A stretch of 64,000 bases of DNA, taken from assembly GCA_012840925.1 (NCBI GenBank), contig DUVS01000045.1, positions 23,716 to 87,715 of the forward strand. Direction: 5' to 3'. Below are positions 27,948 through 51,018 of the stretch, piece by piece. Under the pieces are notes generated by a model. The model saw only the letters and a list, made by a program, of their open reading frames with translations. It did not search any database and was not told where the DNA came from. Origin of the DNA: Bacillota bacterium. Lineage in GTDB: Bacteria; Bacillota; Limnochordia; Darwinibacteriales; DTU012. The position numbers and the translations under genes are program-made. The number at the start of each line of letters is the position of its first letter. The stretch's first letter is position 1.

Positions 27948-29288
27948 ATGAGCGGCAGCAATATTAGATTCGAAAGTTTGGAAGCAGACGTTATTGTGGT
28001 GGGAGCAGGGCCGTCTGGAGTTCCGGCAGCGCTGGCTGCTGCCCGCAATGGTGCGAAGGTGATCTTGTTGGAAGAGGATGCTGTGCCCGGGGGAGCCCCT
28101 GTGGACATGTATGTAGCCATGATTTGCGGAGGCCCGCGCCGGGGGATTTACAGCGAAATCATCAACTATCTTAATGAAAATCATACTCTCGATCGTCAGC
28201 CGATCATTCCATTCAATAACGGCGAAGATGGCTGCAACCATTGGTATCTGCCCTATGCGTATGCTGATGCGATCATGCATTTCATCAACCAGGAGCCTAA
28301 CATTACGTTGATTACAAATGCCAAGGTAGTTGGGCTGATCACCGCAAACGACGAAATCACCGGCGCTGAGAACAGCCTCACCACGGTTGCCGGCGTTTTG
28401 GTTGAGAATTCGCCGGGAACTCAGCCTTTAGAAATCCGGGCTAAGGTCACAATTGACGCAACTGGAACAGGCATCTTGGGTGAAATGGCAGGGTGCGATG
28501 TCCGTTATGGGGCAGACACAAAGGCAGACTTCGGCGAGGAGTTCGCCCCTGAAGAGAAAGACAACGTTGTAATGCCGTGCACATTGATGTACATCACCCA
28601 AAGGCTGCAGGCGGGGCCAATGCCTGATAAAGACGAACTAAAGCGCGGAGGGTTTGTCGAAGACAAACTGAATCGATGGGCTTCAGCTGCCTATGACCAG
28701 GCTTTGCAGAACAACAGAGGTATCTACCTGCATTGGGGAGCGACCGTTGCGTGTGAAGATACGCGGGATTCAATCGCATTGGGGAAAGCTTACTTGCAGG
28801 CATTGGAAATGATCAAGCATAATGCGCGAGTTTGGTACAACCACGGTTTTACAGTACATATAGCCCCCAAGATTGGTGTCCGGGAATGCCGCCGTGTGAT
28901 CGGTGATTACGTCCTGACCATCTACGATATGCTGGATGGCACGTATCACCACGATACTATTGCCCTGAGTTCATATGGTTTGGATACATGGGGTTCAACC
29001 AAAGTTGGTGATAAAGAGTTGAATAAACTGGTCAAGCCCTATGGCATACCTTACCGGGCCCTTATCCCTAAGAACACGGAAGGCCTGCTTATTGCTGGTA
29101 AATCCATTAGTGGGAGCAGATTTGTATGCAGTTCATACCGGGTTCAACCGATCGTGGCCCAAATCGGAGAGGCAGCTGGAGCCGCTGCGGCTTTGGCAGT
29201 CAAAGCCGGCCAGGGGCTTCGCAGTGTGAATATCACCAAGCTGCAGAGTATCTTGAACATAGACGAATCCCAGTTACCGAGGAAGTGA
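27948..29288 (+). CDS. FAD-dependent oxidoreductase (FAD_oxidored/pfam12831-like)
   Basis: DVIVVGAGPSGVPAALAAARNGAKVILLEE dinucleotide-binding motif. 446 aa. Paralogous to the C-terminal half of 45215..48709. Confidence 0.8.
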   Translation: MSGSNIRFESLEADVIVVGAGPSGVPAALAAARNGAKVILLEEDAVPGGAPVDMYVAMICGGPRRGIYSEIINYLNENHTLDRQPIIPFNNGEDGCNHWYLPYAYADAIMHFINQEPNITLITNAKVVGLITANDEITGAENSLTTVAGVLVENSPGTQPLEIRAKVTIDATGTGILGEMAGCDVRYGADTKADFGEEFAPEEKDNVVMPCTLMYITQRLQAGPMPDKDELKRGGFVEDKLNRWASAAYDQALQNNRGIYLHWGATVACEDTRDSIALGKAYLQALEMIKHNARVWYNHGFTVHIAPKIGVRECRRVIGDYVLTIYDMLDGTYHHDTIALSSYGLDTWGSTKVGDKELNKLVKPYGIPYRALIPKNTEGLLIAGKSISGSRFVCSSYRVQPIVAQIGEAAGAAAALAVKAGQGLRSVNITKLQSILNIDESQLPRK

Positions 29289-29335
29289 CCACGCAGCAAT
29301 TCTGTTTGTTGGTTGATTAGGAAGGACGAGCGTCT

Positions 29336-31423
29336 GTGAGATTGATGAAAAATACTGCAGCAGCCACCATTATCTGCTTGGGATTGCTGGCCTGCATAGG
29401 TGGTATCGCTGCAGCTCCTTATCAAGGGTATATTTACAACTCCAGGAATGAGGCTGTTCATGCTCCCCAGGCATACCTTCCGGTGGAAGTGGTTGACGGT
29501 GAAGCCTTGGGCGTTGGCCCGTTCAAGGAACCGCGTGATCTTGCGGTTGGTAGCGACAGCAGGATCTATGTAGCGGATACAGGCAACAATCGCATTGTCT
29601 GCCTTGATGACAATGGGAACGCACCCAAGATCATTGCTCAATTTGAGGCTGACGGCAAACCTGATCAGCTGCGGGCCCCCACCGGTGTGTTTGTGACTGC
29701 GACAGGGGAATTGTACGTTGCAGATCGAGATAATGGCCGTATTATCCAGTTTGATGCTGATGGGAAGTTTATGCGGGAGATTGGTGCTCCCGATCTGATG
29801 TCCAATGCTTCAACTACCAACGATACGAGCTTCAGGTACAAACCTGCAAAAGTGGCGGTCGATCCCCTGGGCAGAATTTATGTGATTGCTGATGGTGTCT
29901 ATGACGGAATAATGGAGTTTGACAAAGATGGTACATTTAAGGGGTATGTAGGAGCTCCAAGGGTAAGGCCTACTTTATCGGAGATTTTCTGGCGCAGATT
30001 TGCCACTGAGGAGCAGAGACAGGCGATGGCGCTGTTTCTACCTGTGGAGTACCTCAGCATAGATGCGGATCAATATGGGTACGTGTTTGCGGTTGAAGCG
30101 GGAGATGCTCACGAAACTTCTATTAAAAAGCTGGTTCCAGGCGGCAGGGACGTTTTGACTAGGAATGGCTACGCACCGCCCAAGGGTGATTTGCTTGGAG
30201 AACGGTCCAAATTTGTGGATATCAAGGCGAGGGAAAATGGTATCTACAGTGTATTGGATCGAACTCGGGGGCGGGTATTTACATACGATAGCAACGGCTA
30301 TTTGTTATATATCTTTGGTACTTTGGGTGAAGCGTTTGGAGCTTTCAAACTGCCTGTGGCCCTGGAAGTGGTGAACGATGACATCCTGGTGCTTGATCTT
30401 GGTACCAACTCAATCACTCGGTTTCAACCAACGGCTTATGCTCAACTGATCCATACCGCCATTGACTGTTATGAACGCGGTGACTTGGCGGAATCAGTCC
30501 GGATTTGGGAACAAGTATTGCGCCTCAACGCTAATCTAGACTTCGCTTATCTATCCGTGGGGCGCTCCTACCTGACTCAAGGAAAATACCAGGAAGCAAT
30601 GGCTTACTCTAGGTTGGGCGACAATCGCGACTTGTTTTCAAAAGCCTTTAGTTATTACCGCAAAAGCGTAGTAGAGCAGTTTTTCAGTGTCTTTGCATTG
30701 GCGATCGCCGTAATTGTATTCCTGGCCAACAGGATTATGGCCCGGTCTGCACGAGCGGGTAAGCAAAGACACCTGGAGGAAGCGAGGCCTGAAGGTCTAG
30801 AACGGATTATCAGCCCGCTCAAATATGCCTTCCATGTTATCTTTCATCCGTTTGACGGATTTTGGGATTTAAAGCATGAACAACGGGGCACTGCTGGCGC
30901 TGCCACAGTAATCCTGGCATTGGTGATTGCCACCTATGTATTTATGAGACAGTATACTGGTTATCTATTTAACGCACGAGATGTTTCCAAAATGAACATC
31001 TACATGGATATCAGCAGCGTAGTGGTGCCATTTTTGTTGTGGTGCCTCGTCAATTGGGCATTGACCACGCTGATGGATGGCAAAGGGACCCTCAAAGAAA
31101 TCTACATTGCATCTGCATATGCCCTGGCACCGGTGGTCCTGATCAATGTGCCCATGACAGTGATCAGCAACTATTTGACGTTAAACGAAGGCTCATTCCT
31201 TTATTTGATGATCTCAATAAGTGTGATCTGGTCCGCTTTTCTGCTGTTTTCCGGAACAATGGTGCTGCACGAGTACGATGTGGCCAAGACAGTGCTGACT
31301 TCCATCCTGATTGTGATCGGGATCGGCAGCATCTTGTTTCTTGGACTGATTTTCCTGGATGTGATCAACTTGTTGTTAGGTTTTGTCACGACCATATACG
31401 CCGAGCTTGTCTTTAGGGTTTAG
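29336..31423 (+). CDS. NHL-repeat / TPR / Yip1-domain membrane protein
   Basis: Signal peptide, then NHL-type blades (RIYVADTGNNRIVCLD, ELYVADRDNGRIIQFD), a TPR-like segment, then a C-terminal 5-6 TM Yip1-like domain. The start (GTG 29336 or ATG 29345) is uncertain. Confidence 0.7.
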   Translation: MRLMKNTAAATIICLGLLACIGGIAAAPYQGYIYNSRNEAVHAPQAYLPVEVVDGEALGVGPFKEPRDLAVGSDSRIYVADTGNNRIVCLDDNGNAPKIIAQFEADGKPDQLRAPTGVFVTATGELYVADRDNGRIIQFDADGKFMREIGAPDLMSNASTTNDTSFRYKPAKVAVDPLGRIYVIADGVYDGIMEFDKDGTFKGYVGAPRVRPTLSEIFWRRFATEEQRQAMALFLPVEYLSIDADQYGYVFAVEAGDAHETSIKKLVPGGRDVLTRNGYAPPKGDLLGERSKFVDIKARENGIYSVLDRTRGRVFTYDSNGYLLYIFGTLGEAFGAFKLPVALEVVNDDILVLDLGTNSITRFQPTAYAQLIHTAIDCYERGDLAESVRIWEQVLRLNANLDFAYLSVGRSYLTQGKYQEAMAYSRLGDNRDLFSKAFSYYRKSVVEQFFSVFALAIAVIVFLANRIMARSARAGKQRHLEEARPEGLERIISPLKYAFHVIFHPFDGFWDLKHEQRGTAGAATVILALVIATYVFMRQYTGYLFNARDVSKMNIYMDISSVVVPFLLWCLVNWALTTLMDGKGTLKEIYIASAYALAPVVLINVPMTVISNYLTLNEGSFLYLMISISVIWSAFLLFSGTMVLHEYDVAKTVLTSILIVIGIGSILFLGLIFLDVINLLLGFVTTIYAELVFRV

Positions 31424-31440
31424 GAAAGAGGTTGGTTATT

Positions 31441-34437
31441 TTGCGAGAACACAGACTCATCAGCCTATTGGCTTTGGCAATCCTCATTGCGATCAGCTGC
31501 AGTTATTCAGCATTGGCTGCTGAGATCAGTTCTGACTTCTTACTGGCAGCTGAAAATGAGTATTTAGGTTTATATATCAACCACAATACCACCGAAATAG
31601 CGGTTCATGTCAAATCCGGGGATACGGTGTGGTATTCCAATCCCAAAGATAGAGAAACGCTGGAGAATGTCGGCGGATCTACGATAAAACAAGAGTTGAG
31701 CTCGCAGTTTTCATTTGCATATAGTGACGGGCGTTACACACTTAACAACTATGTAGATTCAGTACAGCATGAACAGTACGAAATCATTCCAATTGCCGAT
31801 GGTGTGCGGATCGAATACACCGTGGGCAAAAGGTATAATACGGAACACATCGTACCTCCAATGATCAGGCAAGAGCGGTTTGAAAGGATCATCCTGGACA
31901 GTATTGCAGATGCCAAGGACCGGCAGAGAGTTCAGGATGCCTATATCCTGGTGTCACTGGAAAAAACCGAAGGCTCTGAGCGGATTGCTCTGCCTGGCCT
32001 GGATATGGATCGGCTGTTTGGCGACTACCGCCTGGTATTTCATGATCCTGCTTTTCAAAACCTTGAGGAGGAGATTCGAGAACTAAACGCCCGAATTGCC
32101 GCTTTGACAGCTTCGGTCGTCACAGATCAAACTGAACTCAACAATTTAGTTCGACAGCGGGACAATGCCCAAAACAGGCTGGTGCGGGATACACAGACCA
32201 TGGCCAATCATTTTCTGGAGTTAATCCGCGATTACCGGGCAGATGTGGAGAGAGTGGCTGATCTCTCTTTCACTGATCTGAGCCAGCTTGTGGAAACGCC
32301 CACGTATGTCATCAGGCGGATTGCCGGTTTTCTCCAGCGTGAGCTGCAGCGAATCATTGACGCATCGGATTATACCTTTGAAGCTGCCCGTGATGATTGC
32401 TGGGCTAACAACCTTGACCGGCCGGCATACAATACACATGTCTTCTTCGTTCCGATGGAATACTTGTTGGACGGGCCCAATCTGGTGGTTCGGGTCCCAG
32501 TCAGTGAGATCGTGTACCCACAGCCCTTGTCAGCACAGCAGCGCCAGCAGTTGATCGAGGAGAAATCAAAACTGGTGGATCAGCTGCTGGATTTGAACAA
32601 TCAACTCAACCGGCATATCAAAGACACCAAGGATGGCCTGACAACGCTTGTTGATCGGAAATATCAGGCGCTAGCTGCGCAAATTGCCGAAATTACACGG
32701 GAAATAACTGAATTTGAGGAAGCCCATCAGCAAGTGCGGCCAAACCTTCCCATCCTGACATTCACCTTACTGCCTTACTTTGGAGCAGCATATCTGGATC
32801 AGGAAGGTTACATTTTCGTACCTGATGGATCTGGTGCGTTGATCTACCTTAACAACGGTAAAACTACCTCGTCGATTTACAGCCAGACGATTTACGGTGA
32901 TGACTTGTCATTCGGCCCGAGAGAGATGCCGCTGATCCGTACCTTGAACCACCTTCCTGTCTTTGGATTGAAGCAGGGCGATCAGGCATTCCTGGCAATC
33001 ATCGAAGAGGGCGAGGCACTGGCGCGCATTCAAGCAGATGTTGCAGGCAAGCTTCATTCATATAACGTTGTCTATCCCCAATTCACCCTCCGCCCTTCTG
33101 TAATGTCGATAGTGCGCCGTTATCAGTCACGGCTTTACCAGGGAGATATCCGGGTCCGCTATTCATTTCTTGATGGACAAGCCGCTAACTACGTGGGCAT
33201 GGCTCATGCCTATCAGGATTACCTTAAAGAGCAATTTGAGCTGAAACCATTGTCTAGGCAAGAGGACATTCCGTTTTTCCTGGATCTGATTGGAGCAACT
33301 ATTGTAAACAGACCAATTCTAGGTATTTCCCGGAAAGTGACTGTCCCTCTTACCACTTATCAGCAGGCAGAACAGATTCTGACAGCCCTGGAGTCCCTTG
33401 GCATCGAGGCTGTGTTGCTGCGGTACTTAGGATGCCTGCAAGATGGGCTCAAGCATGTGTACCCTAAAGACATTCGTTTGGAAAAGGTGTTGGGAACGCA
33501 GGCTGAGCTGGAAGCTCTCGCTGAAAGACTGGGAACTGCCGGGGGACGGTTGTATTTGGGAGTCGATTTCGTCAATGTATACCCTAAGACTCTCTATCAA
33601 GGTTTTCGCCCAGCCAGAGACGCTGCCCGATTGTTAGACGGGCTGCTGGCCAAGAACTACAGGTATAACGCTGCCACAGGCCAACCCGATCCGGACGATT
33701 ACCGCTTTATCCTGTCACCAAGGGCGCTTGGGCCGTTGGTTGACAGCTTCTTTACCAGTCTGCATGCTCGCCAGATATATGGTATTGCACCATTGGAAAT
33801 GGGCCTGCAGGTGAACTCAGATTTCCGGAGTTCTCCAGAACAGACAGTTGATCGCCAACAAGCTGTCCATATCTTGACGGAACAGCTGCGGAAAATGACA
33901 GCAGACTATGATACCGACTTGATCATTGAAGGAGCCAATGCTTATGCGCTGCCATATACGAATGCCATCGTCCAGATGCCCATGGACAGTACAAACTACA
34001 ATATCGTCGACCAAACTGTCCCGTTTTACCAAATCGTTCTGCATGGATTTGTAGATTATACCGGTAAACCCATCAACTTGGCAGGGGACGATCCACTTTA
34101 CAGGCTGAAATTGCTGGAAACCGGCGCACTGCCGTACTACCAGTGGTCTTATGCCAATTCAATGGAAATCAAAGGTACCGATTCTGAATACCTCTATTCT
34201 CTGCACTATGGAGATTGGTTGGCAGACGCTGCAGACTTCCATGCAGTGGCCAACGAAGTGTTGAGTTTGGTGCGCGTTGAACGGATTGTTGATCATCAGC
34301 AAGTGGCGGGCAATGTCTACAAGACAGTTTATGAGAACGGAGCCGCGATTATTGTCAACTACAATCAAGTACCGGTTGAGGTTGATGGTTTGCCGGTTGC
34401 AGCACTGGGTTTCCGGTTAGTATGGGGGAATTATTAA
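31441..34437 (+). CDS. large secreted DUF5696-like protein with central coiled coil
   Basis: About 1000 aa. SPI-type signal peptide (SALA/AE). Long heptad-rich region (LEEEIRELNARIAALTA...). TTG start chosen for RBS spacing. The partner of Yip1 proteins in ABC-transporter cassettes is recalled from memory and was not searched. Confidence 0.6.
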   Translation: MREHRLISLLALAILIAISCSYSALAAEISSDFLLAAENEYLGLYINHNTTEIAVHVKSGDTVWYSNPKDRETLENVGGSTIKQELSSQFSFAYSDGRYTLNNYVDSVQHEQYEIIPIADGVRIEYTVGKRYNTEHIVPPMIRQERFERIILDSIADAKDRQRVQDAYILVSLEKTEGSERIALPGLDMDRLFGDYRLVFHDPAFQNLEEEIRELNARIAALTASVVTDQTELNNLVRQRDNAQNRLVRDTQTMANHFLELIRDYRADVERVADLSFTDLSQLVETPTYVIRRIAGFLQRELQRIIDASDYTFEAARDDCWANNLDRPAYNTHVFFVPMEYLLDGPNLVVRVPVSEIVYPQPLSAQQRQQLIEEKSKLVDQLLDLNNQLNRHIKDTKDGLTTLVDRKYQALAAQIAEITREITEFEEAHQQVRPNLPILTFTLLPYFGAAYLDQEGYIFVPDGSGALIYLNNGKTTSSIYSQTIYGDDLSFGPREMPLIRTLNHLPVFGLKQGDQAFLAIIEEGEALARIQADVAGKLHSYNVVYPQFTLRPSVMSIVRRYQSRLYQGDIRVRYSFLDGQAANYVGMAHAYQDYLKEQFELKPLSRQEDIPFFLDLIGATIVNRPILGISRKVTVPLTTYQQAEQILTALESLGIEAVLLRYLGCLQDGLKHVYPKDIRLEKVLGTQAELEALAERLGTAGGRLYLGVDFVNVYPKTLYQGFRPARDAARLLDGLLAKNYRYNAATGQPDPDDYRFILSPRALGPLVDSFFTSLHARQIYGIAPLEMGLQVNSDFRSSPEQTVDRQQAVHILTEQLRKMTADYDTDLIIEGANAYALPYTNAIVQMPMDSTNYNIVDQTVPFYQIVLHGFVDYTGKPINLAGDDPLYRLKLLETGALPYYQWSYANSMEIKGTDSEYLYSLHYGDWLADAADFHAVANEVLSLVRVERIVDHQQVAGNVYKTVYENGAAIIVNYNQVPVEVDGLPVAALGFRLVWGNY

Positions 34438-35342
34438 TGAAACACAAACGACGTTTTCTGACAATGAAAGGGCGCAAGTATCTGACCGGATTCATGTTCG
34501 TGTCGCCTTTTGTGATTGGTTTTATCTGTTTCTTTCTATATCCGTTTATCCAGTCGATTGTGTTCAGTTTCAATCAACTCGAGATCACATCCACCGGCTA
34601 TGTCCTGCATTATGTCGGCTTTGCCAACTACCATAATCTATTGTTTGTGCATCCCAACTTTCGTATTGCCTATGTTGATACGCTGATCCAGATGCTTTCG
34701 AGAGTTCCTGCCATACTCATTTTCAGTTTCTTCGCAGCTAACATGCTCAACCAAAAGTTTAGGGGGCGCACTCTTGCCCGAGTGGTATTCTTCCTGCCGG
34801 TAATCATGGGGGCACAGGCTGTATTGGCGCTGCAGAGCACCGACCATATGCAAAAAGCTATGAGTTATTCCAAGATTGGAGCAGAGCTCGGCATGTTTTC
34901 CGGCAGTGAGCTCAGGAACTACCTGCTTGAGCTGCAGCTGCCGGAGGGCCTGCTTAACTATGTTTTCAACGCAGCGGATAGTGTGCCGCAGATTATCAAC
35001 AGTTCTGGCATACCAATTCTAATCATCTTGGCGGCCCTGCAGTCTATTCCGAGCTCAATCTTTGAAGCAGCGAGCATTGAGGGTGCCACGAGGTGGGAGT
35101 GTTTCTGGAAAATCACTTTTCCCATGATCTTGCCCATGATTATGGCTAGTGTGGTTTACACGATTGTTGAATCATTCACTTCTCCCTACAACCAACTGGT
35201 AAACCTGATTAAGACAACTACTTGGCAAGGGTCGGGGTTTGGTGTTAGTGCCGCAATGAGCTGGTTTTACTTTATGACTATCGCAGTAGTTCTGGCTGTT
35301 GTAATGTGCATCATGTCCAAATCGTCGCAAAGCCAGTCGTAG
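34437..35342 (+). CDS. carbohydrate ABC transporter permease (MalF/UgpA-like, CUT1)
   Basis: Six-TM binding-protein-dependent permease with an EAA-like loop (SIEGATRWECFWKITFP). ATG overlaps the upstream stop (TAATG). Confidence 0.85.
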   Translation: MKHKRRFLTMKGRKYLTGFMFVSPFVIGFICFFLYPFIQSIVFSFNQLEITSTGYVLHYVGFANYHNLLFVHPNFRIAYVDTLIQMLSRVPAILIFSFFAANMLNQKFRGRTLARVVFFLPVIMGAQAVLALQSTDHMQKAMSYSKIGAELGMFSGSELRNYLLELQLPEGLLNYVFNAADSVPQIINSSGIPILIILAALQSIPSSIFEAASIEGATRWECFWKITFPMILPMIMASVVYTIVESFTSPYNQLVNLIKTTTWQGSGFGVSAAMSWFYFMTIAVVLAVVMCIMSKSSQSQS

Positions 35343-35359
35343 GAGGAGGTAAAAACCAG

Positions 35360-42047: not shown

Positions 42048-42719
42048 ATGGGCAGTGCGAGCATGGTGCGAACAGATGGTGTTCGATTGAAAGTGGTGGT
42101 CTTTGGCGACAGCATTACATTCAATAACGGCCGCTTGAAGTGGAAGCATTGGACTGAGCTGCTAATGGAAAGGTTTGGCGTAGAGATCATCAATGCAGGC
42201 GTCGGTGGTGATACCACGGTCAAAGGATTGAAGAGAATCCAGACAGATGTCTTGGACCACCACCCTGACATTGTGTTGATCAATTTCGGTATGAATGATC
42301 ATGTCAAAGCAGGGATGAACGCTGAAATCGTGACCCTTGCGGAATATGAGCAAAACCTGAAGACGATGGTTGAACTGGTGCGTGCGGCCGGCGCGGTTCC
42401 ACTACTCGTCACTGTCAGCTATATCTATGAGGGAGATCCCAATAACACCAACGAGAATTACTATTACAACCGCCACGATCCGGCCTACTATACCGATGAC
42501 GGTGGAGCGTTGGCCAGACTGGACAAGTATATTGATGTAATGCGGAGAGTTGCCCTGGAGTATGATGTGCCCCTTGCTGACGTTCGTGCTGCCTGTGATC
42601 AGTATGATCCCCGGGAATTTACCCGCGACGGCGTCCATATATCGGCGTTAGGAAATGAAGTCTGGGCTGAGGTAATCGGGGCTTGCCTGGCTAATCAGGT
42701 TTTTCCAGGCCTGCTCTAG
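42048..42719 (+). CDS. SGNH/GDSL hydrolase (esterase/deacetylase)
   Basis: VVVFGDSIT block I, GVGGDT, DGVHIS block V. The true start may be downstream (ATG 42063 or TTG 42087). Confidence 0.8.
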   Translation: MGSASMVRTDGVRLKVVVFGDSITFNNGRLKWKHWTELLMERFGVEIINAGVGGDTTVKGLKRIQTDVLDHHPDIVLINFGMNDHVKAGMNAEIVTLAEYEQNLKTMVELVRAAGAVPLLVTVSYIYEGDPNNTNENYYYNRHDPAYYTDDGGALARLDKYIDVMRRVALEYDVPLADVRAACDQYDPREFTRDGVHISALGNEVWAEVIGACLANQVFPGLL

Positions 42720-42763: not shown

Positions 42764-45166
42764 ATGAAAACCCGTGTGTTGATGATTTTGTTATTGCTAT
42801 TGACCATCCTTGTGCAACCAGTATTGGCTCAGCCAGGGCAGCAGGCCATTGCAGCAATCGAAATTATGCCTAATATTCCGCAGCCGTTTGAAATGCGGGA
42901 CTGGAAAGAAGTGGCTCGACGTTATGATGCCCTGCTCTTCGATTTTCACAGCTCAGGTGAGCATCTGCCGCTGATTAGATGGGATAACAGAAATGTCAAT
43001 TTCAAGCTGCAGAGCTTCATGATTCCTTCATATATCGGTGCATCAGGGGGCAATGAAGCGCTTACCCAGATCTCTGCGGTCCTCGGCGCGTCTTTGGTTG
43101 GCATAGACAAGAGCAATCAAAATGGACACAACTGGGTTTTGATGACTAAGCAATACTTCAATGCCAAGAATGGGCTGGGCATTATCAACAACAACGTAAA
43201 CTCGACCGGTGGAAGCTTCTGGTACAATGTTTGGCCGGGCATGCTCTTCTTCATGCTGGCCGATCAGTACCCTGAAGTTGCCCAGATTCAGACTCCATTG
43301 AATTTTACAAACAAGTCGATGAGCATGTCCGACATAATGTATACCAATGCTCAGCAGTGGGCTTCTGCAGTTGCAGATCTTCGGAACAGGCCGGATATAA
43401 ACCGGGTCAACCTGTTACGTTATGATCTCATTAATCGCCAGCCAGTTTACCGATATGAGGACGACAAATACCGTTTTGCCCATGGCAACCAACTGCCGGA
43501 AGGTTTGGTGGGGATTGCCTGGATGAACTACATGGCCTATGTAACCTGGGGTGAGCCTCAGTTTTTGGAGACAGTGGAGTGGTGCATGGATTTCCTTGAC
43601 AATCTTGACTACAATCCGCTCTATGAGGTGATTATTCCCTACGGTGCATACATGGCTGCCCGATTGAATGCTGAGCTTGGTACGAATTACGATGTGAAAC
43701 GGTATATTGAGTGGACTTTCGGGCCGGCGGACGCTCGCCCGGGCTGGGGGATCGTTCACGGCACATGGGCGGGCAAAGATGTGAATGGTTTGATGGGCAG
43801 TATCAGTACCGATTATGTCTTTGCCATGAATACATTCGCCACTGCAGCGGCGTTTGTGCCTACTGTCCGCTATGACCCCTCTTTTGCGAGGGCAATTGGC
43901 AAATTCGTTTTAAACCTTGCCAACAATGCGCGGCTGTTCTACGGCAAGTATCATGATGCCGAACACAAAACCCGCCCTGATTGGCAAGGGGATCCTGATT
44001 CTGTGATCGCTTACGAAGCCTTGCGCCGGGAATGGAACGGCAAGACTCTCTATGCCATGGGCGACGGAGTGAAAAACGGCTGGGCAGCCACTGATTTTGG
44101 ATTGTACGGTTCATCGCATGTAGGGTTGTTGGCGGCTTGTATTGCACCGACCAATGATGAGAAAATCCTGCAGCTGGATCTTTTGGCGACTGATTTCTTC
44201 CATGCTCCGGCGTACCCAAGTTATCTCTACTACAATCCTTACAGCGAGGCACGGAAAGTGGTAGTTGACGTAGGAGATTCCGAAAGCCGGCTTTATGATG
44301 CAGCGACCAAACAGTTTATCACCGGACCGGTTGTTGGCGAAGTGGAATTCGAGCTGGATGCAGATTCAGCAGCAGTCATAGTAGTAGCACCAGCCGGTGG
44401 AGAGGTAAGTGTTGACGGGAAGCGGTTGTTGGTTGATGGTGTCGTAGTGGATTATCAGTATGCCTCGCTTAGGCTTGGCAACTTACAGGATGGATCCATT
44501 GTTTACGGGCTCTATCCTGTTGAGCTGAGTTCAGTTCAAATCAATGACCCGATCACCCATACTGCTGCCTACCTTAATCAGCAGGAGGTTTTCAGGGCCG
44601 ATGGTTTTGTTGATCAGTTCACCCTCGATGCATCCGGTATGGCCAACGGCAGTGTTTGGGAGTTGAGAGTCGAGGCCGAGACCAGTACTGGGTTTAAGTA
44701 CACAGATAAGGCCCTGGTTACCATTGATAATCGGGTTTTAGGCAGAGCTGGTGCCTTGAATCCACTCAACTGGAATCCCCATGAGCTCTACCCTGCGGCA
44801 ATCCAGGTCGAGAATCAGGCTACAATGATTCAGAAGCGCAATCCGAATGATCAGTGGGGCGGGGTTGTCAGTCCCGTTTTAGAACTGGACCTTCAGCGCA
44901 AACCAATCCTAAAGCTTTCCGGGGTCTATGCGCCCGGGCAATATGTGATCAAACTCCGCTGGGCGGATGGCACCGAAACTGCCCTGGTTGAGCAGACAAC
45001 CAGCGCCCAGCTCGAAATTGATATTGCTGAAACCCTGCATCAGGCCCAGGAGCAGATTGGAGCAGGTGTCCACCAAGTTCAACTGATCATCGGCAGCTAT
45101 TCGGCAACCAGGCGGGTAAGCATCTGGAATTTTGCCACTAGTGTAGAGCTGTTTTATCTAGAGTGA
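42764..45166 (+). CDS. secreted paralog of the unknown family with about 260-aa C-terminal extension
   Basis: 800 aa. SPI signal peptide (PVLA/QP). N-terminal 540 aa collinear with 37730..39376. Beta-rich C-terminal extension. Confidence 0.7.
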   Translation: MKTRVLMILLLLLTILVQPVLAQPGQQAIAAIEIMPNIPQPFEMRDWKEVARRYDALLFDFHSSGEHLPLIRWDNRNVNFKLQSFMIPSYIGASGGNEALTQISAVLGASLVGIDKSNQNGHNWVLMTKQYFNAKNGLGIINNNVNSTGGSFWYNVWPGMLFFMLADQYPEVAQIQTPLNFTNKSMSMSDIMYTNAQQWASAVADLRNRPDINRVNLLRYDLINRQPVYRYEDDKYRFAHGNQLPEGLVGIAWMNYMAYVTWGEPQFLETVEWCMDFLDNLDYNPLYEVIIPYGAYMAARLNAELGTNYDVKRYIEWTFGPADARPGWGIVHGTWAGKDVNGLMGSISTDYVFAMNTFATAAAFVPTVRYDPSFARAIGKFVLNLANNARLFYGKYHDAEHKTRPDWQGDPDSVIAYEALRREWNGKTLYAMGDGVKNGWAATDFGLYGSSHVGLLAACIAPTNDEKILQLDLLATDFFHAPAYPSYLYYNPYSEARKVVVDVGDSESRLYDAATKQFITGPVVGEVEFELDADSAAVIVVAPAGGEVSVDGKRLLVDGVVVDYQYASLRLGNLQDGSIVYGLYPVELSSVQINDPITHTAAYLNQQEVFRADGFVDQFTLDASGMANGSVWELRVEAETSTGFKYTDKALVTIDNRVLGRAGALNPLNWNPHELYPAAIQVENQATMIQKRNPNDQWGGVVSPVLELDLQRKPILKLSGVYAPGQYVIKLRWADGTETALVEQTTSAQLEIDIAETLHQAQEQIGAGVHQVQLIIGSYSATRRVSIWNFATSVELFYLE

Positions 45167-45214
45167 CTAGACAACTCAAGCTGGCGCAGAGCATAGACCA
45201 TGGAGGTAATACAA

Positions 45215-48200
45215 GTGTGTAAATCCTGGAACAAGATGAACTGGTTTTTTAAAGCATGTTTGATCTTCTGTACAATTATTGCTGCTGCCTGCCCCAGTGC
45301 AGCCAAGAAAGTGGTGATGGAGTCGCAGCGGGAAATCCCCATTGTTCAAACAGTTGATGTGATTGTAGTCGGAGGTACTTCTGCCGGGGTGGCAGCAGCA
45401 GTGGAAGCTGCCGCACATGGTGCCAGTGTCATCTTGATCGCTGAGCGCCCCTATCTCGGTGAGGACATTGCGGGCACATACCGCTTATGGCTGGAGAATG
45501 GTGAGGTGCCAGATTCGCCATTGGCTGAAGCTGTGTTCAAAGAATCTTTTGCATTACCACAGGGAATGAGTTTTACCTATTCAGCCAATCGCCAGCCTTC
45601 CGGAGGCCATCTGGACAACCTGCAAAGGCCAAAACTGACAGACGGGTTGGCTACTAACGCGTCAGGCAACAGCGTCCAGTTTAATACCGATGTTTCCATT
45701 ACCCTGGACTTAGGGGAGGTTAAGGAGTTCAACTGCGTCGATTTGTTTGCCTTCCAGCGGCCCCGTGATTTTGAAGTTGCTGCTGTGACCGTATATACAA
45801 GTAATGACCTGCGGTCGTGGCAGCAGATCGGCCGGGTTGTAAACAGTTTGGCTGGAACAGAACGCTTTGAGACAAACGGAGGCGTTCGCTTGTCACTGCA
45901 ACAAGCAGCCAAGGCCAGATATCTTAAGCTGGAAATCAACAAAAGCAGCAATTCCAAACGGATGTTACTAGCCGAAATTGTTGTCCGGAAACTGGAATCG
46001 GGTTTTGCCGAATACCGGGTGCCGCCAACCATGATGCAGGTTAAGAAGTCGTTGGAAACAGCGCTGCTTGAGAGCGGTGTCAAATTTCTTTACAGCTCCT
46101 ATGCGACTGAAGTGTTGGTCGACAGTGAGGGCAAGCTGGGCGGGATTGTGATCAGCAATCGCGCCGGACGCCAGGGAATTGTCGGTAAAGTGATTATTGA
46201 TGCCAGTACTCATGCGGCGGTAGCCAAAGCCGCCGGGGTCAACTTCACTCCGTTTCCCAGCGGTGATCATCTCTTCACCCGGGTTGTTGTAGGTAATGAG
46301 ATATCGGTGAAAGCGGATCCAAGCATTGTTACCGCCCGAGTGCTGCCAACACGGCTGCCGGCTGTCGGGGGGAACAACCAGGCTATCGAGTATACGCTTC
46401 GCATTCCTATGGCGGACGGTTCCTACGCAGCGTACGCTGAAGCCGAGCAGATTGCCCGAAGCATCACCTGGGATCCATATCAGGCGGATGCTTCCGAGAT
46501 GCTCTTTCATATCCCGCCTATCCACATTTCCGGCCAGATGCCGGATCAAGGCCCATGGCTCGGAGCAGACAAAATGAACTCGAATGCTTTTAAGCCTGCC
46601 GGGGTTGACCGCCTGTATGTCCTCAGCGGATACGCTGACATCTCACGGGAGGCGGCTGCCCAACTGCTGCGCCCTCTGGAGTATATGAAGGCAGGGGCAC
46701 GAATCGGTATCGAAGCTGCGGCAGCGGCTGCAGAATCACCATTTCCGGAAAAAGTGACGGTTATAGGAAACGACAAGGACATCCAAGCTGCTTCCGATTC
46801 AGCGGTCGCTGCCGGAGATGTTTCCGAGCTGCTAACCGGGATTCGGCCGACCCAAACCGGACTGCCTGCACTACTTTCCCCCTTGCGTCCCCTGCCGGTG
46901 TTAGGCGAGTATGATGTGGTCGTTGTTGGTGGCGGTACTGCCGGAGCTCCGGCAGCGATCGCAGCCGCAAGGCAGGGAGCGCGGACTCTGGTGGTGGAGT
47001 ACCTGTATGGGCTCGGCGGTATGGGAACTATCGGTCAAGTAAGCTCCTATTTTGCAGGATATACCAAAGGGTTTACTGCCGAAATTGACAAAGGCGTGGA
47101 AGCGCTTGGCGGCATTGATCCCTGGAATGAAAAGGCCTGGAATGTAGAGGCGAAAATGGAATGGTACCGGAGAGAGATGCTGGATGCAGGCGCCGACATT
47201 TGGTTCCATACAATGGGCATTGGCGCAGTGGTTGAAAACAACCGTGTTCAGGGCGTTGTCGTGGCCACTCCCCATGGCCGCGGAGTGGTGCTGGCAGATG
47301 TAGTCATTGACGCAACAGGAAATGCAGATATTGCCATTGCTTCGAATGCAGTTTACCGGTTTACAGATGCGGAGCATGCAGCAATGCAGGGAGCTGCGGT
47401 TGTCTACCGCGATCTGCCTCCAGATAACAAGTACTGGTTTGTCAATCTCGATTGGATGTTTATCGACGAGATGGATCTGATCAATGTGTGGCATGCTCTC
47501 GTTATTGGCAAAGAACGATTTGCAGACAAATTCGACCTTGGCCAACTGATTCAGACTCGGGAAAGGCGCAACATTGTGGGGGATTATGTAGTCTCCCCGG
47601 TGGATGTGGTAACTGGCAAACAATTCTACGATACTGTTGCCTTTGCCAAATCCAGTATCGATTCACACGGGTTCTATGTCCACCCCTTGTTTATCATCAG
47701 CCCGCCTGAACACCGTCAGTATCAGTCCAATATACCCTACCGTGCCCTTCTGCCAAAAGGGCTGGATGGGATCCTGGTTGTAGGGCTTGGGATCAGTGCT
47801 CACCGTGATGCTATTCCGGCTTTGCGGATGCAGGCCGACGTGCAAAACCTTGGCTACGCAGCGGGTGTGGCGGCTGCCATGGCGGCAAGGGAGAAGAGTT
47901 CCACCAGAGGTATTGATATCCGGAAACTTCAGGAACACCTGATAGCCATGGAAATTATCACGAGGGGAGCTGTTGTGGAAAAGGATACCCCACCCAGCAA
48001 CCACGACGTTGTCAAGTATGCCTTGAGCACATTCAAACTCAATCTGCGCAATGTACCGCTGGTCCTGGCGGCAGAACCTGATGTGGCTTTAGAACTGCTG
48101 CGCGAGGGATACGAATCAGGAACACTTGATCAAAAAATCAGAACATACTACGCCAAGATCATGGGTGTCCTTGGCGACCCTACCGGGATAGATGATCTTA

Positions 48201-48709
48201 TTGAAGCTGTCAACAGCTACAACCAGTGGGATCAAGGCTGGGATTACCGAGTCTATGGAGTTTATGGGGATTGCCGCAGCGAACTGGACAGCCTGGTGAT
48301 GGCCTTAGGCCTTTCTGGAAGCCCGAAAGGGCTGGAGGCTGTCCTGAACAAAGCCGCGCTGTTGGATGCCAACAGTGAATTTTCGCATCATCGGGCTGTA
48401 GCCGTTGCCCTGGAAGCTATAAATCATCCTGAAGGTGCCAAGGCTTTGGCTGAACTCCTGTCAAAGCCGGGCATGCGAGGGTATGCGGTTAAGACTTTAG
48501 ATGATGCGAAGAGGTTGTACTTCATTGGAGACATTACCCATACTCTCCGCGATTACTCCCTGCGTGAGCTGATTTTAGCCAAAGCATTGTATGCCACTGG
48601 GGATCATCAAGGAATTGGCAAAGCCATTTTGGAGGAATATGCACAGGATCTGAGGGCGCTTTACTCAAGTCATGCCGCTGCCGTTTTAAAAGCGTATGGG
48701 AGCAAGTAA
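45215..48709 (+). CDS. multidomain lipoprotein: two FAD-binding Rossmann modules, discoidin-like insert, C-terminal HEAT-like repeats
   Basis: DVIVVGGTSAGVAAAVEAAAHGASVILIAE and YDVVVVGGGTAGAPAAIAAARQGARTLVVE motifs. F5/8-type-C-like segment (SITLDLGEVKEFNCVDLF...RYLKLEIN). PBS-lyase/HEAT-like C-terminal repeats. Lipobox-like IIAAAC. GTG 45215 is 7 nt after GGAGG. ATG 45200 is an alternative. Confidence 0.7.
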   Translation: MCKSWNKMNWFFKACLIFCTIIAAACPSAAKKVVMESQREIPIVQTVDVIVVGGTSAGVAAAVEAAAHGASVILIAERPYLGEDIAGTYRLWLENGEVPDSPLAEAVFKESFALPQGMSFTYSANRQPSGGHLDNLQRPKLTDGLATNASGNSVQFNTDVSITLDLGEVKEFNCVDLFAFQRPRDFEVAAVTVYTSNDLRSWQQIGRVVNSLAGTERFETNGGVRLSLQQAAKARYLKLEINKSSNSKRMLLAEIVVRKLESGFAEYRVPPTMMQVKKSLETALLESGVKFLYSSYATEVLVDSEGKLGGIVISNRAGRQGIVGKVIIDASTHAAVAKAAGVNFTPFPSGDHLFTRVVVGNEISVKADPSIVTARVLPTRLPAVGGNNQAIEYTLRIPMADGSYAAYAEAEQIARSITWDPYQADASEMLFHIPPIHISGQMPDQGPWLGADKMNSNAFKPAGVDRLYVLSGYADISREAAAQLLRPLEYMKAGARIGIEAAAAAAESPFPEKVTVIGNDKDIQAASDSAVAAGDVSELLTGIRPTQTGLPALLSPLRPLPVLGEYDVVVVGGGTAGAPAAIAAARQGARTLVVEYLYGLGGMGTIGQVSSYFAGYTKGFTAEIDKGVEALGGIDPWNEKAWNVEAKMEWYRREMLDAGADIWFHTMGIGAVVENNRVQGVVVATPHGRGVVLADVVIDATGNADIAIASNAVYRFTDAEHAAMQGAAVVYRDLPPDNKYWFVNLDWMFIDEMDLINVWHALVIGKERFADKFDLGQLIQTRERRNIVGDYVVSPVDVVTGKQFYDTVAFAKSSIDSHGFYVHPLFIISPPEHRQYQSNIPYRALLPKGLDGILVVGLGISAHRDAIPALRMQADVQNLGYAAGVAAAMAAREKSSTRGIDIRKLQEHLIAMEIITRGAVVEKDTPPSNHDVVKYALSTFKLNLRNVPLVLAAEPDVALELLREGYESGTLDQKIRTYYAKIMGVLGDPTGIDDLIEAVNSYNQWDQGWDYRVYGVYGDCRSELDSLVMALGLSGSPKGLEAVLNKAALLDANSEFSHHRAVAVALEAINHPEGAKALAELLSKPGMRGYAVKTLDDAKRLYFIGDITHTLRDYSLRELILAKALYATGDHQGIGKAILEEYAQDLRALYSSHAAAVLKAYGSK

Positions 48710-48751
48710 GAAACAACTAACATAGCAAATATCAAATGAGGTGAAGTTACT

Positions 48752-49717
48752 GTGAAAAGATCAAATTTGTTGAGTGCTATTTGTTTAATCGCATTATTGT
48801 TCAGCGGATGCTTTTCCTTTGGTGGTTCATACAATGTTTCCGGGACTGTCGTTGATTTGGACGGCAATCCGATTGCTGGCGTTGAGGTAGTCGCTGAGGG
48901 AGAGAAGCCGGTGATCGAGAGCACAGATGCTGAAGGCAAGTTTACTTTTACCGGCCTTGAAGGTTCAGTCACGATATCTGCGCAAAAAGACGGCTATCTC
49001 TTTTCTGGGCCGTATACTGTGAAAAAGCAGGAGAAAGCCCTGGAAATTTTAGGTGTTGTTGGTAGTGTCGATGTATCTGGCGAAGGTACTGTCCAAGTTG
49101 CTCTGAATGAGAACGGCACAGCGACCTTGAAAGCAATTCCTGATGGAGACTGGGTATTTATCCGGTGGGAAGGAAGCCTGGACGGAAACACCAACCCGGC
49201 CTCGGTGACTTTTGATCAACCAAAGAACATTACTGCGGTGTTCCGCAACTTCTACACTGATGAAGGAAACCTGGAGTGGGCGCCTGAATTGTTAGGCCTG
49301 CCGGAATTCTGGGCTGGGCGCTACTCTAGGGAGGAATTCGTGATTGAAAGTTCAGGGGGATTCTTGAAACTGACAATGTCTCCGACATACGAATATGCAG
49401 CGCTGTCTAACGTGATCATCCCCAACAGTGCCGTCAAGGCCAGGGTCACTGTGGTTGATGTCAGCGGAAACATAAACAGCGGATTTTGGCGTCTGCGCTT
49501 GACCAATCCGGAAACAGAATCAACACAGAATGTTGCTGGAGGTAGTACTCCGGCGAAAGACGCTGTTGAAACAAAAAACATTCCAACAGCATCCCTCAAT
49601 TTGATACAAGAGGGCAAGCCAGTGAACATTGAGATTGGAGGCAATTGGACTGCCGGTGAGTGGGCAGTGTTCAAGCTGGAGTTCCTTGATGCAGAGGATA
49701 ATGCAGTGGCTTTTTAA
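48752..49717 (+). CDS. lipoprotein: CarboxypepD_reg-like domain + InlB-B/Listeria-Bacteroides-type repeat + shared C-terminal unknown domain
   Basis: Lipobox LFSGC. GTVVDLDGNPIAGVEV (CarbopepD_reg). ATLKAIPDGDWVFIRWEG...NPASVTFDQPKNITAVF (bacterial repeat domain). C-terminal domain homologous to 41464..42045. Confidence 0.7.
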   Translation: MKRSNLLSAICLIALLFSGCFSFGGSYNVSGTVVDLDGNPIAGVEVVAEGEKPVIESTDAEGKFTFTGLEGSVTISAQKDGYLFSGPYTVKKQEKALEILGVVGSVDVSGEGTVQVALNENGTATLKAIPDGDWVFIRWEGSLDGNTNPASVTFDQPKNITAVFRNFYTDEGNLEWAPELLGLPEFWAGRYSREEFVIESSGGFLKLTMSPTYEYAALSNVIIPNSAVKARVTVVDVSGNINSGFWRLRLTNPETESTQNVAGGSTPAKDAVETKNIPTASLNLIQEGKPVNIEIGGNWTAGEWAVFKLEFLDAEDNAVAF

Positions 49718-49810: not shown

Positions 49811-49935
49811 GACTCCTATATAGTGTTTGGAACTTGGAATCGTGCCTATAGTCAGTAAATTGCATTAATACAAAGGAAATTTCCACATTGGTATGGTAAT
49901 AGTTTACTGGAAGATGTACTCGGGAAAGGGTGACA

Positions 49936-51018
49936 ATGGTGAAAGTTACGGTAAAGGATGTGGCCAGAGCGGCTAACGTTTCACCAGCAACGGTATCGAG
50001 GGTTTTTAACAACAACCCGAATATTTCCGCAGAGACTAGAGAATTGGTGGTGACGACAGCCGCCAAACTTGGATATAAACCGCGTGCACCCAAGAGTGAG
50101 CGGCAGGAAGCGATTAGTAAAAATATCGCCATCGTATTCAATAATCGGTTGACAAGCCTTGCTGATGACCCTTTTTATGGCCAGGTAATTGGGGGCATTG
50201 AGCAGATTGTCAGTCAAAAAAACTATAATCTCTTTTTTAGAACTGTGACAGGACACCTGGACAGTGATTTGGAAAGAGTAGAATCACTGTTCAACGACGA
50301 AAAACTGGCAGGTATCATTCTGGCTGGCTATGAGATTAATGAGCGATTGGTCAAACGGATTAAAGAAAACAACCTTCCCCTGGTACTGGTAGACAGCAAC
50401 TTGTATGATGAGAATGTGAACATGATCTTAAATGACAACACAGCGGGGGCGCGGGCTGCAGTCGATTATTTGATTAGTCTTGGTCACAGGCGGATTGGAT
50501 TTATCGGGGGGCCTTTAACCCATACATCATTGGATGAGCGCTACATAGGTTACAAGCAGGCACTGCGCCGTGCGGGAGTCAGGAAAAGCGAGGAGTACAT
50601 TGCGTTCTGCAAACCGAAATTTGATGCCGATGATGGGTACCGGGCAGCGTTAACTATGCTGAGAAATTGTCATCTTTTACCAACAGCGATTTTTGCAGCC
50701 AATGATATGCTAGCTATTGGTGTCATGCGTGCTGTTTTTGATCTCGATCTGAACATACCCAACGATATTTCAGTCGTGGGTTTTGATGATATTAGTATGG
50801 CTCAACATACAATTCCCCAACTGACAACGGTAAGAATTCAGAAACGTGAAATGGGAATTATGGCTGGTAAAAGGCTTCTGGAGTTAATCGAGGAGCCTGA
50901 CGTAAAACCGATAAAGGTTATTGTAGGTGTGGAGCTAGTAGTCAGGGATTCTGTTGCGGAAATAAACGAAGTGCATTCAGAGTCTGGCATAATATCCAAA
51001 AAAGAAGCCTACTCCTGA
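49936..51018 (+). CDS. LacI family transcriptional regulator
   Basis: HTH VTVKDVARAANVSPATVSRVFNN and a PBP-type sugar-binding domain. GTG 49930 is an alternative start. Confidence 0.9.
   Translation: MVKVTVKDVARAANVSPATVSRVFNNNPNISAETRELVVTTAAKLGYKPRAPKSERQEAISKNIAIVFNNRLTSLADDPFYGQVIGGIEQIVSQKNYNLFFRTVTGHLDSDLERVESLFNDEKLAGIILAGYEINERLVKRIKENNLPLVLVDSNLYDENVNMILNDNTAGARAAVDYLISLGHRRIGFIGGPLTHTSLDERYIGYKQALRRAGVRKSEEYIAFCKPKFDADDGYRAALTMLRNCHLLPTAIFAANDMLAIGVMRAVFDLDLNIPNDISVVGFDDISMAQHTIPQLTTVRIQKREMGIMAGKRLLELIEEPDVKPIKVIVGVELVVRDSVAEINEVHSESGIISKKEAYS

Follow-up and report, generated by a model that had tools for sequence, protein, structure and literature searches.

The window analysed here is the whole 64,000-nucleotide stretch of contig DUVS01000045.1, from a Bacillota bacterium, and at positions 27948-51018 it contains a locus of 15 genes, spanning ~23 kb of the + strand, that is probably a LacI-controlled cluster for the uptake and phosphorolytic catabolism of β-1,2-linked mannosides. 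At its centre lie genes for a glycoside hydrolase family 130 (GH130) enzyme, a DUF1861 protein of glycosyltransferase family 108 (GT108), an ATP-binding cassette (ABC) sugar importer and two paralogs of a protein family for which neither Pfam nor NCBIfam gives a match, referred to below as the (α/α)-barrel family. Open reading frame (ORF) listing and Pfam scans place the genes, all on the same strand, in the following order:

27948..29288, + strand: flavin adenine dinucleotide (FAD)-dependent oxidoreductase-like protein of family PF12831, 446 aa, predicted cytoplasmic (Pfam 261 bits, full length)
29336..31423, + strand: NHL-Yip1 membrane protein, 695 aa, with a predicted signal/anchor, extracellular NHL β-propeller and C-terminal multi-pass Yip1 domain (Pfam NHL and Yip1)
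31432..34437, + strand: DUF5696 protein, 1001 aa, with an N-terminal signal/anchor (Pfam DUF5696, 607 bits)
34422..36268, + strand: two ABC sugar permeases, with ORFs of 306 and 320 aa (Pfam BPD_transp_1; 5-6 hydrophobic segments each)
36366..37676, + strand: solute-binding protein, 436 aa from the likely Met start (Pfam SBP_bac_1/8; the ORF opens at 36234)
37730..39376, + strand: cytoplasmic copy of the (α/α)-barrel family, 548 aa (paralog match, AlphaFold model; no signal peptide)
39404..40375, + strand: GT108 (DUF1861) homologue, 323 aa, predicted cytoplasmic (Pfam DUF1861; MTP-4 match)
40520..41434, + strand: putative β-1,2-mannoside phosphorylase of GH130 subfamily 6, mannobiose type, 304 aa, predicted cytoplasmic (7FIP and 9FJ8 matches)
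41464..42045, + strand: lipoprotein, 193 aa (lipobox LLAGC; no Pfam or NCBIfam match)
42048..42719, + strand: SGNH/GDSL esterase, 223 aa, predicted cytoplasmic (Pfam Lipase_GDSL_2, 96 bits; GDS motif at residues 20-22; no signal peptide)
42764..45166, + strand: secreted copy of the (α/α)-barrel family, 800 aa, with a signal peptide, the conserved core and a ~230-aa C-terminal extension (paralog match)
45200..48709, + strand: 1169-aa protein with two PF12831 domains, the first split by a carbohydrate-binding-like F5/8 type C domain; C-terminus helical (Pfam 262 bits)
48752..49717, + strand: lipoprotein, 321 aa, with CarboxypepD_reg-like and InlB B-repeat-like Ig folds (Pfam; lipobox LFSGC)
49930..51018, + strand: LacI-family repressor, 362 aa, the last gene (Pfam LacI and Peripla_BP_3)

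These scans confirm the co-directional arrangement and gene order proposed in an earlier, sequence-only reading of this DNA, and its reading of the locus as a glycan utilisation cluster linked to LacI and served by an ABC importer is likewise supported. Intergenic gaps are short, the widest being 213 nt (5' of the LacI gene) and then 145 nt (between the DUF1861 and GH130 genes), and the base composition of the locus is ordinary. The same gene order is found in relatives at 54-80% protein identity, recurring in L005/L006 (whose (α/α)-barrel protein is 76% identical), L007 (61%) and L093-L095, and the arrangement is therefore no chance juxtaposition. Clusters at least 90% identical to the window proteins are labelled as metagenome-assembled genomes (MAGs) of 'Firmicutes/Bacillota bacterium', the list for GH130 carrying the same labels, and a DUF5696 cluster at 77% identity is labelled Limnochordia; the DNA thus probably comes from an uncultured, Limnochordia-like bacterium within the Bacillota. 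The claim that the locus is complete and self-contained was overstated, since it has no gene for an ABC ATPase and the gene for a sugar-phosphate mutase lies outside the unit.

The GH130 enzyme, which lacks a signal peptide, matches PF04041 (Pfam name Glyco_hydro_130) with 226 bits against a cut-off of 26. Residues 1-303 align with residues 12-313 of 7FIP, the β-1,2-mannobiose phosphorylase Teth514_1789 (E 4e-119, 59% identity), and there is a similar match to 9FJ8, the 1,2-β-oligomannan phosphorylase Teth514_1788 (E 1.2e-113, 58% identity); both are characterised β-1,2-mannoside phosphorylases (PMC4264767). Enzymes acting on β-1,4 linkages match far more weakly, with E values of 7e-28 for 5AYD, 1.5e-23 for UhgbMP and 5e-07 for BfMGP. 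Within GH130, a Tyr before the catalytic Asp is typical of β-1,4 enzymes, whilst an E-D pair is found in the non-β-1,4 subfamilies (PMC4599007, PMC12814180). The window enzyme carries the E-D motif (WGVEDPR, E98-D99) and not the Y-D of the β-1,4 subfamilies. The Lys of the NKD motif is kept (K149), as are H166-R167-R168, H220 and R229, which in the alignment are identical to Teth514_1788 and Teth514_1789 and whose phosphate contacts are taken from the literature. In the hydrolases of this family (GH130_3), Glu replaces basic phosphate-binding residues (PMC4599007). The comparison of phosphorylase and hydrolase residues that the sequence-only reading had proposed was thus carried out, with the outcome that the basic residues of the phosphorylase subgroup are retained and the hydrolase Glu is not present.

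Two further features bear on chain length and subfamily. W121 occupies the position of Trp120 in Teth514_1789, a residue that closes off subsite +3 and so limits that enzyme to a degree of polymerisation of 2-3 (PMC12814180), and among 50 aligned sequences only these two carry Trp at this position. The 48-residue lid loop that is a feature of GH130_4 (PMC12814180) is absent, there being no insertion relative to Teth514_1789. The assignment of GH130 as a mannoside enzyme therefore stands, and of the substrates suggested for it earlier the β-1,2-mannoside option is favoured; β-1,4-Man-Glc and Man-GlcNAc of N-glycans find no support because of the E-D motif, the β-1,2-specific closest relatives and the absence of the usual N-glycan and β-1,4-mannan enzymes. 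Phosphorolysis of β-1,2-mannosides is very probably the core chemistry of the locus.

The neighbouring DUF1861 protein points to the same linkage. It matches PF08950 with 349 bits over profile positions 2-295 of 296, has no signal peptide, and is 43% identical to Leishmania MTP-4 (6Q50, E 1.9e-66), with 2B4W following at E 5.6e-63 and the matches to MTP-4, MTP-1 and MTP-2 ranging from E 1.9e-66 to 8e-56. The Leishmania MTPs belong to CAZy family GT108 and make and phosphorolyse β-1,2-mannan (PMC10913872). R160 of the window protein (LTRPL) aligns with Arg150 of MTP4 (FSRPR), the chain-to-native offset of 20 having been inferred from 2B4W. At this position, Arg occurs in phosphorylase-capable enzymes and His in the strict transferases MTP1/2, so that Arg is permissive rather than diagnostic, and the preference for guanosine diphosphate (GDP)-mannose or mannose 1-phosphate as donor is set by distal residues and loop dynamics (PMC10913872). 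From this evidence the protein is proposed as a candidate β-1,2-oligomannan phosphorylase, and by analogy with the two-enzyme, two-chain-length arrangement of Thermoanaerobacter it may fill the long-chain slot. Its genomic context was sampled in 41 GT108 loci, each 12 kb or longer, three of which are close relatives of the window. ABC permeases were found in ~22 and MalK-type ATPases in 11 of the other 38, and GH130 in 14 of all 41 with the close relatives counted, neighbours that favour a catabolic role over that of a storage-polymer synthase.

The sequence-only reading had suggested that a family without known relatives might supply the depolymerase, and this family remains the best candidate. 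Its 548-aa member aligns with the 800-aa protein at 45% identity over the whole 548-aa core (E 6e-173). The 800-aa protein had been counted among the lipoproteins; given this identity it is instead the secreted paralog and bears an unambiguous Sec signal peptide (MKTRVLMILLLLLTILVQPVLA), which leaves clear lipoboxes only in the 193-aa and 321-aa proteins. The two paralogous genes, which that reading had listed together, are set apart rather than adjacent. A search of PDB sequences with a profile of the family gave no match at E <= 10. The family is large, comprising more than 1,339 clusters at 90% identity in a word-indexed search and, in an exhaustive search at 50% identity, 1,498 clusters at E <= 1e-3 and 608 at E <= 1e-30. 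Members occur in Bacillota, Acidobacteriota, Planctomycetota, Verrucomicrobiota, Bacteroidota, Ignavibacteriota, Marinimicrobia, Thermotogota, Bipolaricaulota and Asgard archaea, and among the species representatives of the genome collection there is none more than 50% identical. Signal- or anchor-like N-termini are present in ~58 of 85 members by a rough, alignment-anchored heuristic, and some members bear Laminin_G_3, PKD, PF06452 or type IX secretion system (T9SS) sorting domains.

The AlphaFold model of the 548-aa protein, built on 37 sequences, is of high confidence (predicted local distance difference test (pLDDT) 94.9, predicted template-modelling score (pTM) 0.94) and consists of a helical barrel followed by a C-terminal β-sandwich. 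The top 50 Foldseek matches in the PDB comprise only distant (α/α)6 glycosidases and phosphorylases of GH127, GH146, GH94, GH9 and GH15, with template-modelling (TM) scores of at most 0.39 and ~10% identity. Seven acidic residues (E74, D91, E254, E270, E391, D414 and D457) are invariant in the family alignment and shared by both window paralogs. A glycosidase-type fold, conserved acidic residues and extracytoplasmic members with carbohydrate-binding or secretion modules are together what is expected of a glycoside hydrolase.

What ties this family to β-1,2-mannosides is its genomic linkage, which was sampled in 79 loci from species-representative genomes, reaching up to ±10 kb around family members; many contigs are truncated and neighbour counts are therefore lower bounds. 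A GH130 gene is found no more than 10 kb away in 35 of the 79 loci, with a tblastn match in a 36th, against a chance of about 1% for a 20-kb interval, a figure that is an estimate and not a computed control. GT108 occurs in 9, ABC permeases in ~28 and a GH2 β-mannosidase-like gene in 11 of these loci. Among the 47 neighbouring GH130 enzymes, 46 carry E-D, one Q-D and none Y-D; the Lys is present in 45, and the Arg and His in nearly all. They span several lineages: some resemble Teth514_1788 at 60-64% identity, that of Paenibacillus castaneae resembles Lin0857 (E 7e-158) with a GT108 gene adjoining, and those of Ignavibacteria, some shorter and some longer, find their best PDB match in 7FIP. 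P. castaneae also has a long and a short (α/α)-barrel paralog, as in the window. A minimal operon made up of an (α/α)-barrel gene, a binding protein, two permeases and GH130 is found in MAGs labelled Thermotogaceae (L042), Bipolaricaulota (L046) and 'uncultured bacterium' (L017), and on a short Spirochaetaceae contig (L034) GH130 directly adjoins the family. Guilt by association thus argues strongly that the (α/α)-barrel family produces or trims the substrate of the phosphorylases; that its substrate is β-1,2-mannan or the derived oligosaccharides is put at about an even chance.

Related loci vary in composition. In Marinimicrobia (L025, L031) and Ignavibacteria/Bacteroidota (L065, L073, L060, L061) the family is accompanied by one or two E-D GH130 genes and an ABC importer, together with a weakly GH127-like protein of 411-463 aa and adjoining T9SS-type outer-membrane genes; these loci add either an MGH1/GH63-like gene, or GH2 β-mannosidase-like and GH94/GDE-like genes. 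Family members are also carried by Asgard MAGs (Hermod-, Hod-, Heimdall- and Promethearchaeota; L011, L012, L036, L041; P0042, P0056, P0086), and in the two Asgard loci inspected there is no GH130 near them.

Upstream of the first (α/α)-barrel gene lies a five-gene block, comprising the NHL-Yip1 protein, the DUF5696 protein, two permeases and a binding protein of ~436 aa. The NHL-Yip1 protein, the first gene of this module, has hydrophobic segments at residues 3, 443 and 518-667 and stands beside DUF5696 in all other genomes inspected. In L001 the identical binding-protein gene has been annotated with 436 aa; the window protein has the signal-like sequence MKRRFVVMLTVALLL. The AlphaFold model of the DUF5696 protein (pLDDT 87.9) shows a (β/α)8 barrel with long coiled helical insertions. 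Its best Foldseek match is to GH129 (5opq, E 7e-27, target TM 0.70), followed by GH101, GH36, GH31 and GH13, and it has the N-terminal β-sandwich and (β/α)8 barrel that define the GH129/GH101 fold (5wzn, TM 0.64). It superposes on the ZgGH129 3,6-anhydro-D-galactosidase, the NagBb α-N-acetylgalactosaminidase and endo-α-GalNAc-ases with TM scores of 0.64-0.70 and 11-16% identity (16% for NagBb), from which it differs in its long helical insertions and its obligatory pairing with NHL-Yip1 and an ABC importer. Pfam gives no GH model for the protein, only a sub-threshold match to FlgK_D1 besides DUF5696, and phmmer against the PDB returns nothing relevant. As the fold match is not accompanied by a sequence match, DUF5696 is regarded as a fold relative and not as a member of GH129 or GH101. 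In the barrel region, D797 is invariant and D860 nearly so.

GH129, GH101, GH36, GH31 and GH13 cleave α-glycosidic bonds. The DUF5696 protein, predicted from its model to be an extracellular glycosidase-like protein, may therefore serve to release or debranch chains instead of cutting β-1,2 bonds. The five-gene block recurs in other settings, with GH10/GH43 neighbours in Paenibacillus camelliae (L087), alone in a Limnochordia contig and beside GH1 in a Halanaerobiaceae-type contig (L088, L089), and beside GT108 in several metagenome contigs (L099, L100, L107, L114, L137); it is thus a portable importer-associated module. It often adjoins a second ABC system with a giant binding protein of 860-990 aa. 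The literature searched held nothing relevant on DUF5696, for which the glycosidase-like fold and the portable module with NHL-Yip1 are the first functional hints.

Flavoproteins are a second conserved accompaniment. The 446-aa protein has the canonical dinucleotide motif GAGPSG and no signal peptide, and its PDB matches cover the N-terminal Rossmann motif only. The 1169-aa protein begins with a signal/lipobox-like sequence (IIAAAC near residue 30); the motif of its first PF12831 domain is deviant (GGTSAG) and that of the second canonical (GGGTAG), so that a PF12831 profile match is combined with an intact GxGxxG in the 446-aa protein and in this second domain. Relatives encode a third flavoprotein between DUF1861 and GH130, a double-PF12831 protein of 993-994 aa (L005 12659-15643; L007 13560-16541) that is predicted to be cytoplasmic and matches the 1169-aa protein at 54% identity but has neither its signal peptide nor its F5/8 type C insert. 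By the gene tables of L005 and L007, the corresponding place in the window is an intergenic gap:

40376..40519, + strand: intergenic gap in place of the double-PF12831 gene of relatives

No remnant of that gene was detected in this gap of 145 nt, tblastn with the L005 protein matching only the 1169-aa and 446-aa genes, and the window has either cleanly lost the gene or always lacked it. Both the (α/α)-barrel family and the double flavoprotein were thus represented in the ancestral locus by a pair of paralogs, one outside the cell and one inside. In Planctomycetota, PF12831-like genes adjoin the (α/α)-barrel family in L026 (6914-8158) and L047 (13950-14372), the latter locus also having GT108 and GH130, which is a weak but independent hint of a flavoprotein link to the system. 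No characterised close relative of these PF12831/FAD_oxidored proteins was found in the PDB or the literature searched, which likewise held nothing relevant on a link between GH130 and FAD-dependent enzymes. The Paenibacillus xanthan lyase XalA, considered as a PF12831 lead for a lyase role, was rejected because it is listed as PL8 (PMC10881899). Confidence in any specific role for the flavoproteins is low; they are flagged here for their conservation within the glycan locus of what is likely an anaerobe. As for the remaining proteins, the esterase is a putative deacetylase of imported oligosaccharides and the sole basis for the idea of an acetylated substrate, the 321-aa lipoprotein is possibly a surface glycan-binding protein, and the position of the 193-aa lipoprotein is taken in L005 by a gene of 191 aa.

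The limits of the locus are marked as follows, the mutase gene being adjacent and a separate unit:

25988..27670, + strand: phosphoglucomutase/phosphomannomutase family gene, 560 aa (Pfam PGM_PMM_I-IV)
27718..27756, + strand: terminator-like hairpin and T-run 3' of the mutase gene, read from the sequence; upstream boundary of the locus
27872..27883, + strand: core of an upstream motif, TTGCAGGAATTT, from a three-sequence alignment of the window, L005 and L007

The gene after LacI is convergent and those further downstream are unrelated; together with the upstream hairpin, this shows that the boundaries were correctly placed. A terminator consensus scan did not list the hairpin and gave no excess of sites over shuffles, nor did a promoter consensus scan, and no inverted-repeat operator was detected in three intergenic regions. 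The motif TTGCAGGAATTT and its flanks are conserved 5' of the first gene in the window, L005 and L007, where the region is otherwise diverged, and may be a promoter or operator element. An Rfam scan found only a tRNA gene outside the locus, at 20618-20688 on the - strand (70 bits), between metallophosphoesterase and 261-aa genes. It lies inside a second sugar locus on the + strand, at window positions 1-25600, with genes for GH42, a 932-aa protein of no family (2934-5732), URO-D-like and GFO/IDH/MocA proteins, a BT_1020-like propeller with a sialidase-like carbohydrate-binding module, two MGH1/GH63-like proteins, GH2, LacI, an FGGY kinase, GH95 and an apiosidase-like GH140. This gene set is reminiscent of rhamnogalacturonan-II side-chain degradation, and no link of its genes to the (α/α)-barrel family or GT108 was found elsewhere.

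The uptake and catabolism of β-1,2-mannosides by the locus can be pictured as follows. Outside the cell, the secreted 800-aa protein would cut a glycan bearing β-1,2-mannosyl chains, possibly assisted by the membrane-anchored DUF5696 protein and the surface flavoprotein. The resulting oligosaccharides would be imported by the binding protein and two permeases, energised by an ATPase encoded elsewhere. Inside, the SGNH esterase may remove acyl groups and the 548-aa paralog, a putative hydrolase, would shorten or debranch the imported β-1,2-mannooligosaccharides. The GT108 protein would then phosphorolyse the longer β-1,2-oligomannosides, leaving mannobiose and mannotriose to GH130_6, and the product, α-mannose 1-phosphate, could be converted by the upstream mutase to mannose 6-phosphate, which enters glycolysis. 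LacI would control the gene set. Of this scheme, the analysis shows what the two phosphorylase-type enzymes are by homology, where the proteins are predicted to reside, the paralogy, the folds and the linkage of genes across phyla; all enzymatic activities, the split by chain length, the natural polymer and the parts given to the (α/α)-barrel family, DUF5696, the esterase and the flavoproteins are inferred.

Several observations weigh against this scheme. Pairs of GH130_6 genes in the thermophiles Caldanaerobacter, Caldicellulosiruptor and Caldanaerobius occur with importers and without an (α/α)-barrel gene; the expectation that the family would be present in these clusters was accordingly rejected. 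The family is also found in only 4 of the 41 GT108 loci, three of these being close relatives, and such scarcity means that it is not obligatory for β-1,2-mannoside use and that the association is one-sided. Conversely, 43 of the 79 (α/α)-barrel loci have no GH130 within 10 kb, though many of the contigs are truncated. GT108 enzymes can be strict GDP-mannose transferases, the Arg being undiagnostic of phosphorylase activity (PMC10913872), and no abundant environmental β-1,2-mannan is known, as stated for Thermoanaerobacter (PMC4264767). The NHL-Yip1/DUF5696/ABC module, being found also with GH10/GH43, with GH1 or alone, is not mannoside-specific. Finally, the flavoproteins, with two genes here and three in relatives, fit no simple scheme of hydrolysis and phosphorolysis.

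An alternative model, which we consider unlikely, holds that β-1,2-mannosyl units are only one element of a more complex heteropolysaccharide or glycoconjugate, for instance fungal phosphopeptidomannan, a polysaccharide of a microbial envelope or an exopolysaccharide; the (α/α)-barrel family, DUF5696 and the flavoproteins would act on other linkages, and the phosphorylases would clear the last fragments. The many (α/α)-barrel loci without GH130 are in keeping with this model, as is the much larger number of proteins in the locus compared with the minimal operon of (α/α)-barrel family, importer and GH130. The resemblance of DUF5696 to the α-glycosidase families GH129, GH101, GH36 and GH31, and the conservation in relatives of the esterase and two or three flavoproteins, also suit it. 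However, the minimal operons of distant phyla hold only the (α/α)-barrel family, an importer and an E-D GH130, which ties the family directly to the substrate of the phosphorylases. Moreover, no GH130 neighbour has a Y-D motif, and the DUF5696 module is portable and not substrate-specific.

Two further models are highly improbable. In the first, the locus would serve classical β-1,4-mannan or glucomannan, or N-glycans (Man-β-1,4-GlcNAc), as in GH130_1/GH130_2 systems; PF04041 is named for β-1,4-mannooligosaccharide phosphorylase and the esterase would suit acetylated glucomannan, but β-1,4 enzymes match at E 7e-28 or worse against E 4e-119 for the β-1,2 enzyme, the motif is E-D rather than Y-D, and the second propeller belongs to GT108, a β-1,2-mannan family. 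A classical β-mannan locus would pair a GH26, GH5 or GH113 endo-mannanase with a Y-D GH130, and Pfam scans, in agreement with the sequence-only reading, found none of these mannanases anywhere in the window, nor a mannobiose epimerase-like gene, GH18, GH85 or GH92 in the locus. The second model envisages an internal, mannogen-like reserve cycle in which GT108 synthesises β-1,2-mannan from GDP-mannose, GH130 mobilises it and the position within an import locus has no bearing on function. The ancestral GT108 enzymes reconstructed for bacteria are strict transferases, the single characterised bacterial member being bifunctional (PMC10913872), the mutase gene is adjacent and some GT108 loci have neither an importer nor GH130 in their vicinity; against this, Pfam scans found no GDP-mannose pyrophosphorylase gene in the window, the genes sit between those of the importer and the secreted paralog with LacI at the end, most bacterial GT108 loci have sugar importers, and phosphorylase-type MTPs of Leishmania are catabolic in vivo (PMC10913872).

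β-1,2-Mannoside phosphorylases have been characterised since 2014, at which time the source of the substrate for the bacteria concerned was unknown (PMC4264767), and no endo-β-1,2-mannanase or other depolymerase for β-1,2-mannan was found in the literature searched. The locus and its cross-phylum relatives now offer one concrete, clonable candidate family, with secreted and cytoplasmic copies, which makes the question of the substrate's source directly testable. We tentatively propose, as a conjecture somewhat short of probable, that the 548-aa and 800-aa proteins represent a new GH family of β-1,2-mannan or mannooligosaccharide hydrolases present in hundreds of species, with DUF5696/NHL-Yip1 and the surface and cytoplasmic PF12831 flavoproteins extending the pathway in this lineage. 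If so, β-1,2-mannan would be a widespread and so far unrecognised environmental carbon source.

The proposed pathway has counterparts among known systems. Bacterial β-1,2-glucan systems combine an endo-β-1,2-glucanase, a 1,2-β-oligoglucan phosphorylase and an ABC importer. The likeness lies in the combination of an (α/α)6 depolymerase, in the window a candidate only, with an importer and a cytoplasmic phosphorylase for a β-1,2 homoglycan; the sugar and the protein families differ, and no β-1,2-glucanase is among the top 50 Foldseek matches. With the mannogen enzymes of Leishmania (MTP1-7 of GT108; 6Q50, 6Q4W, 6Q4X) and the bacterial AsGT, the window shares a full-length DUF1861 protein with Arg at the position of MTP4 Arg150, although it is a bacterial import and catabolic locus whereas that of Leishmania is a eukaryotic reserve-polymer gene array. 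Among described systems, the closest is the Teth514_1785-1796 cluster of Thermoanaerobacter sp. X-514 (Chiku et al. 2014, PMC4264767). Both have an ABC importer and two cytoplasmic phosphorylase-type enzymes, which in the Teth514 pair differ in chain-length preference, and the window GH130 carries the Teth514_1789-type Trp. In contrast to that cluster, the window has a GT108 protein in place of the second GH130 and lacks the mannose-1-phosphate guanylyltransferase (GDP-mannose branch), GT4 and GH5 genes; it adds the (α/α)-barrel paralogs, of which the Caldanaerobacter version of the thermophile cluster has none, the NHL-Yip1/DUF5696 module, the esterase and the flavoproteins. The window locus is thus a variant of the Thermoanaerobacter-type system that adds three uncharacterised protein families.

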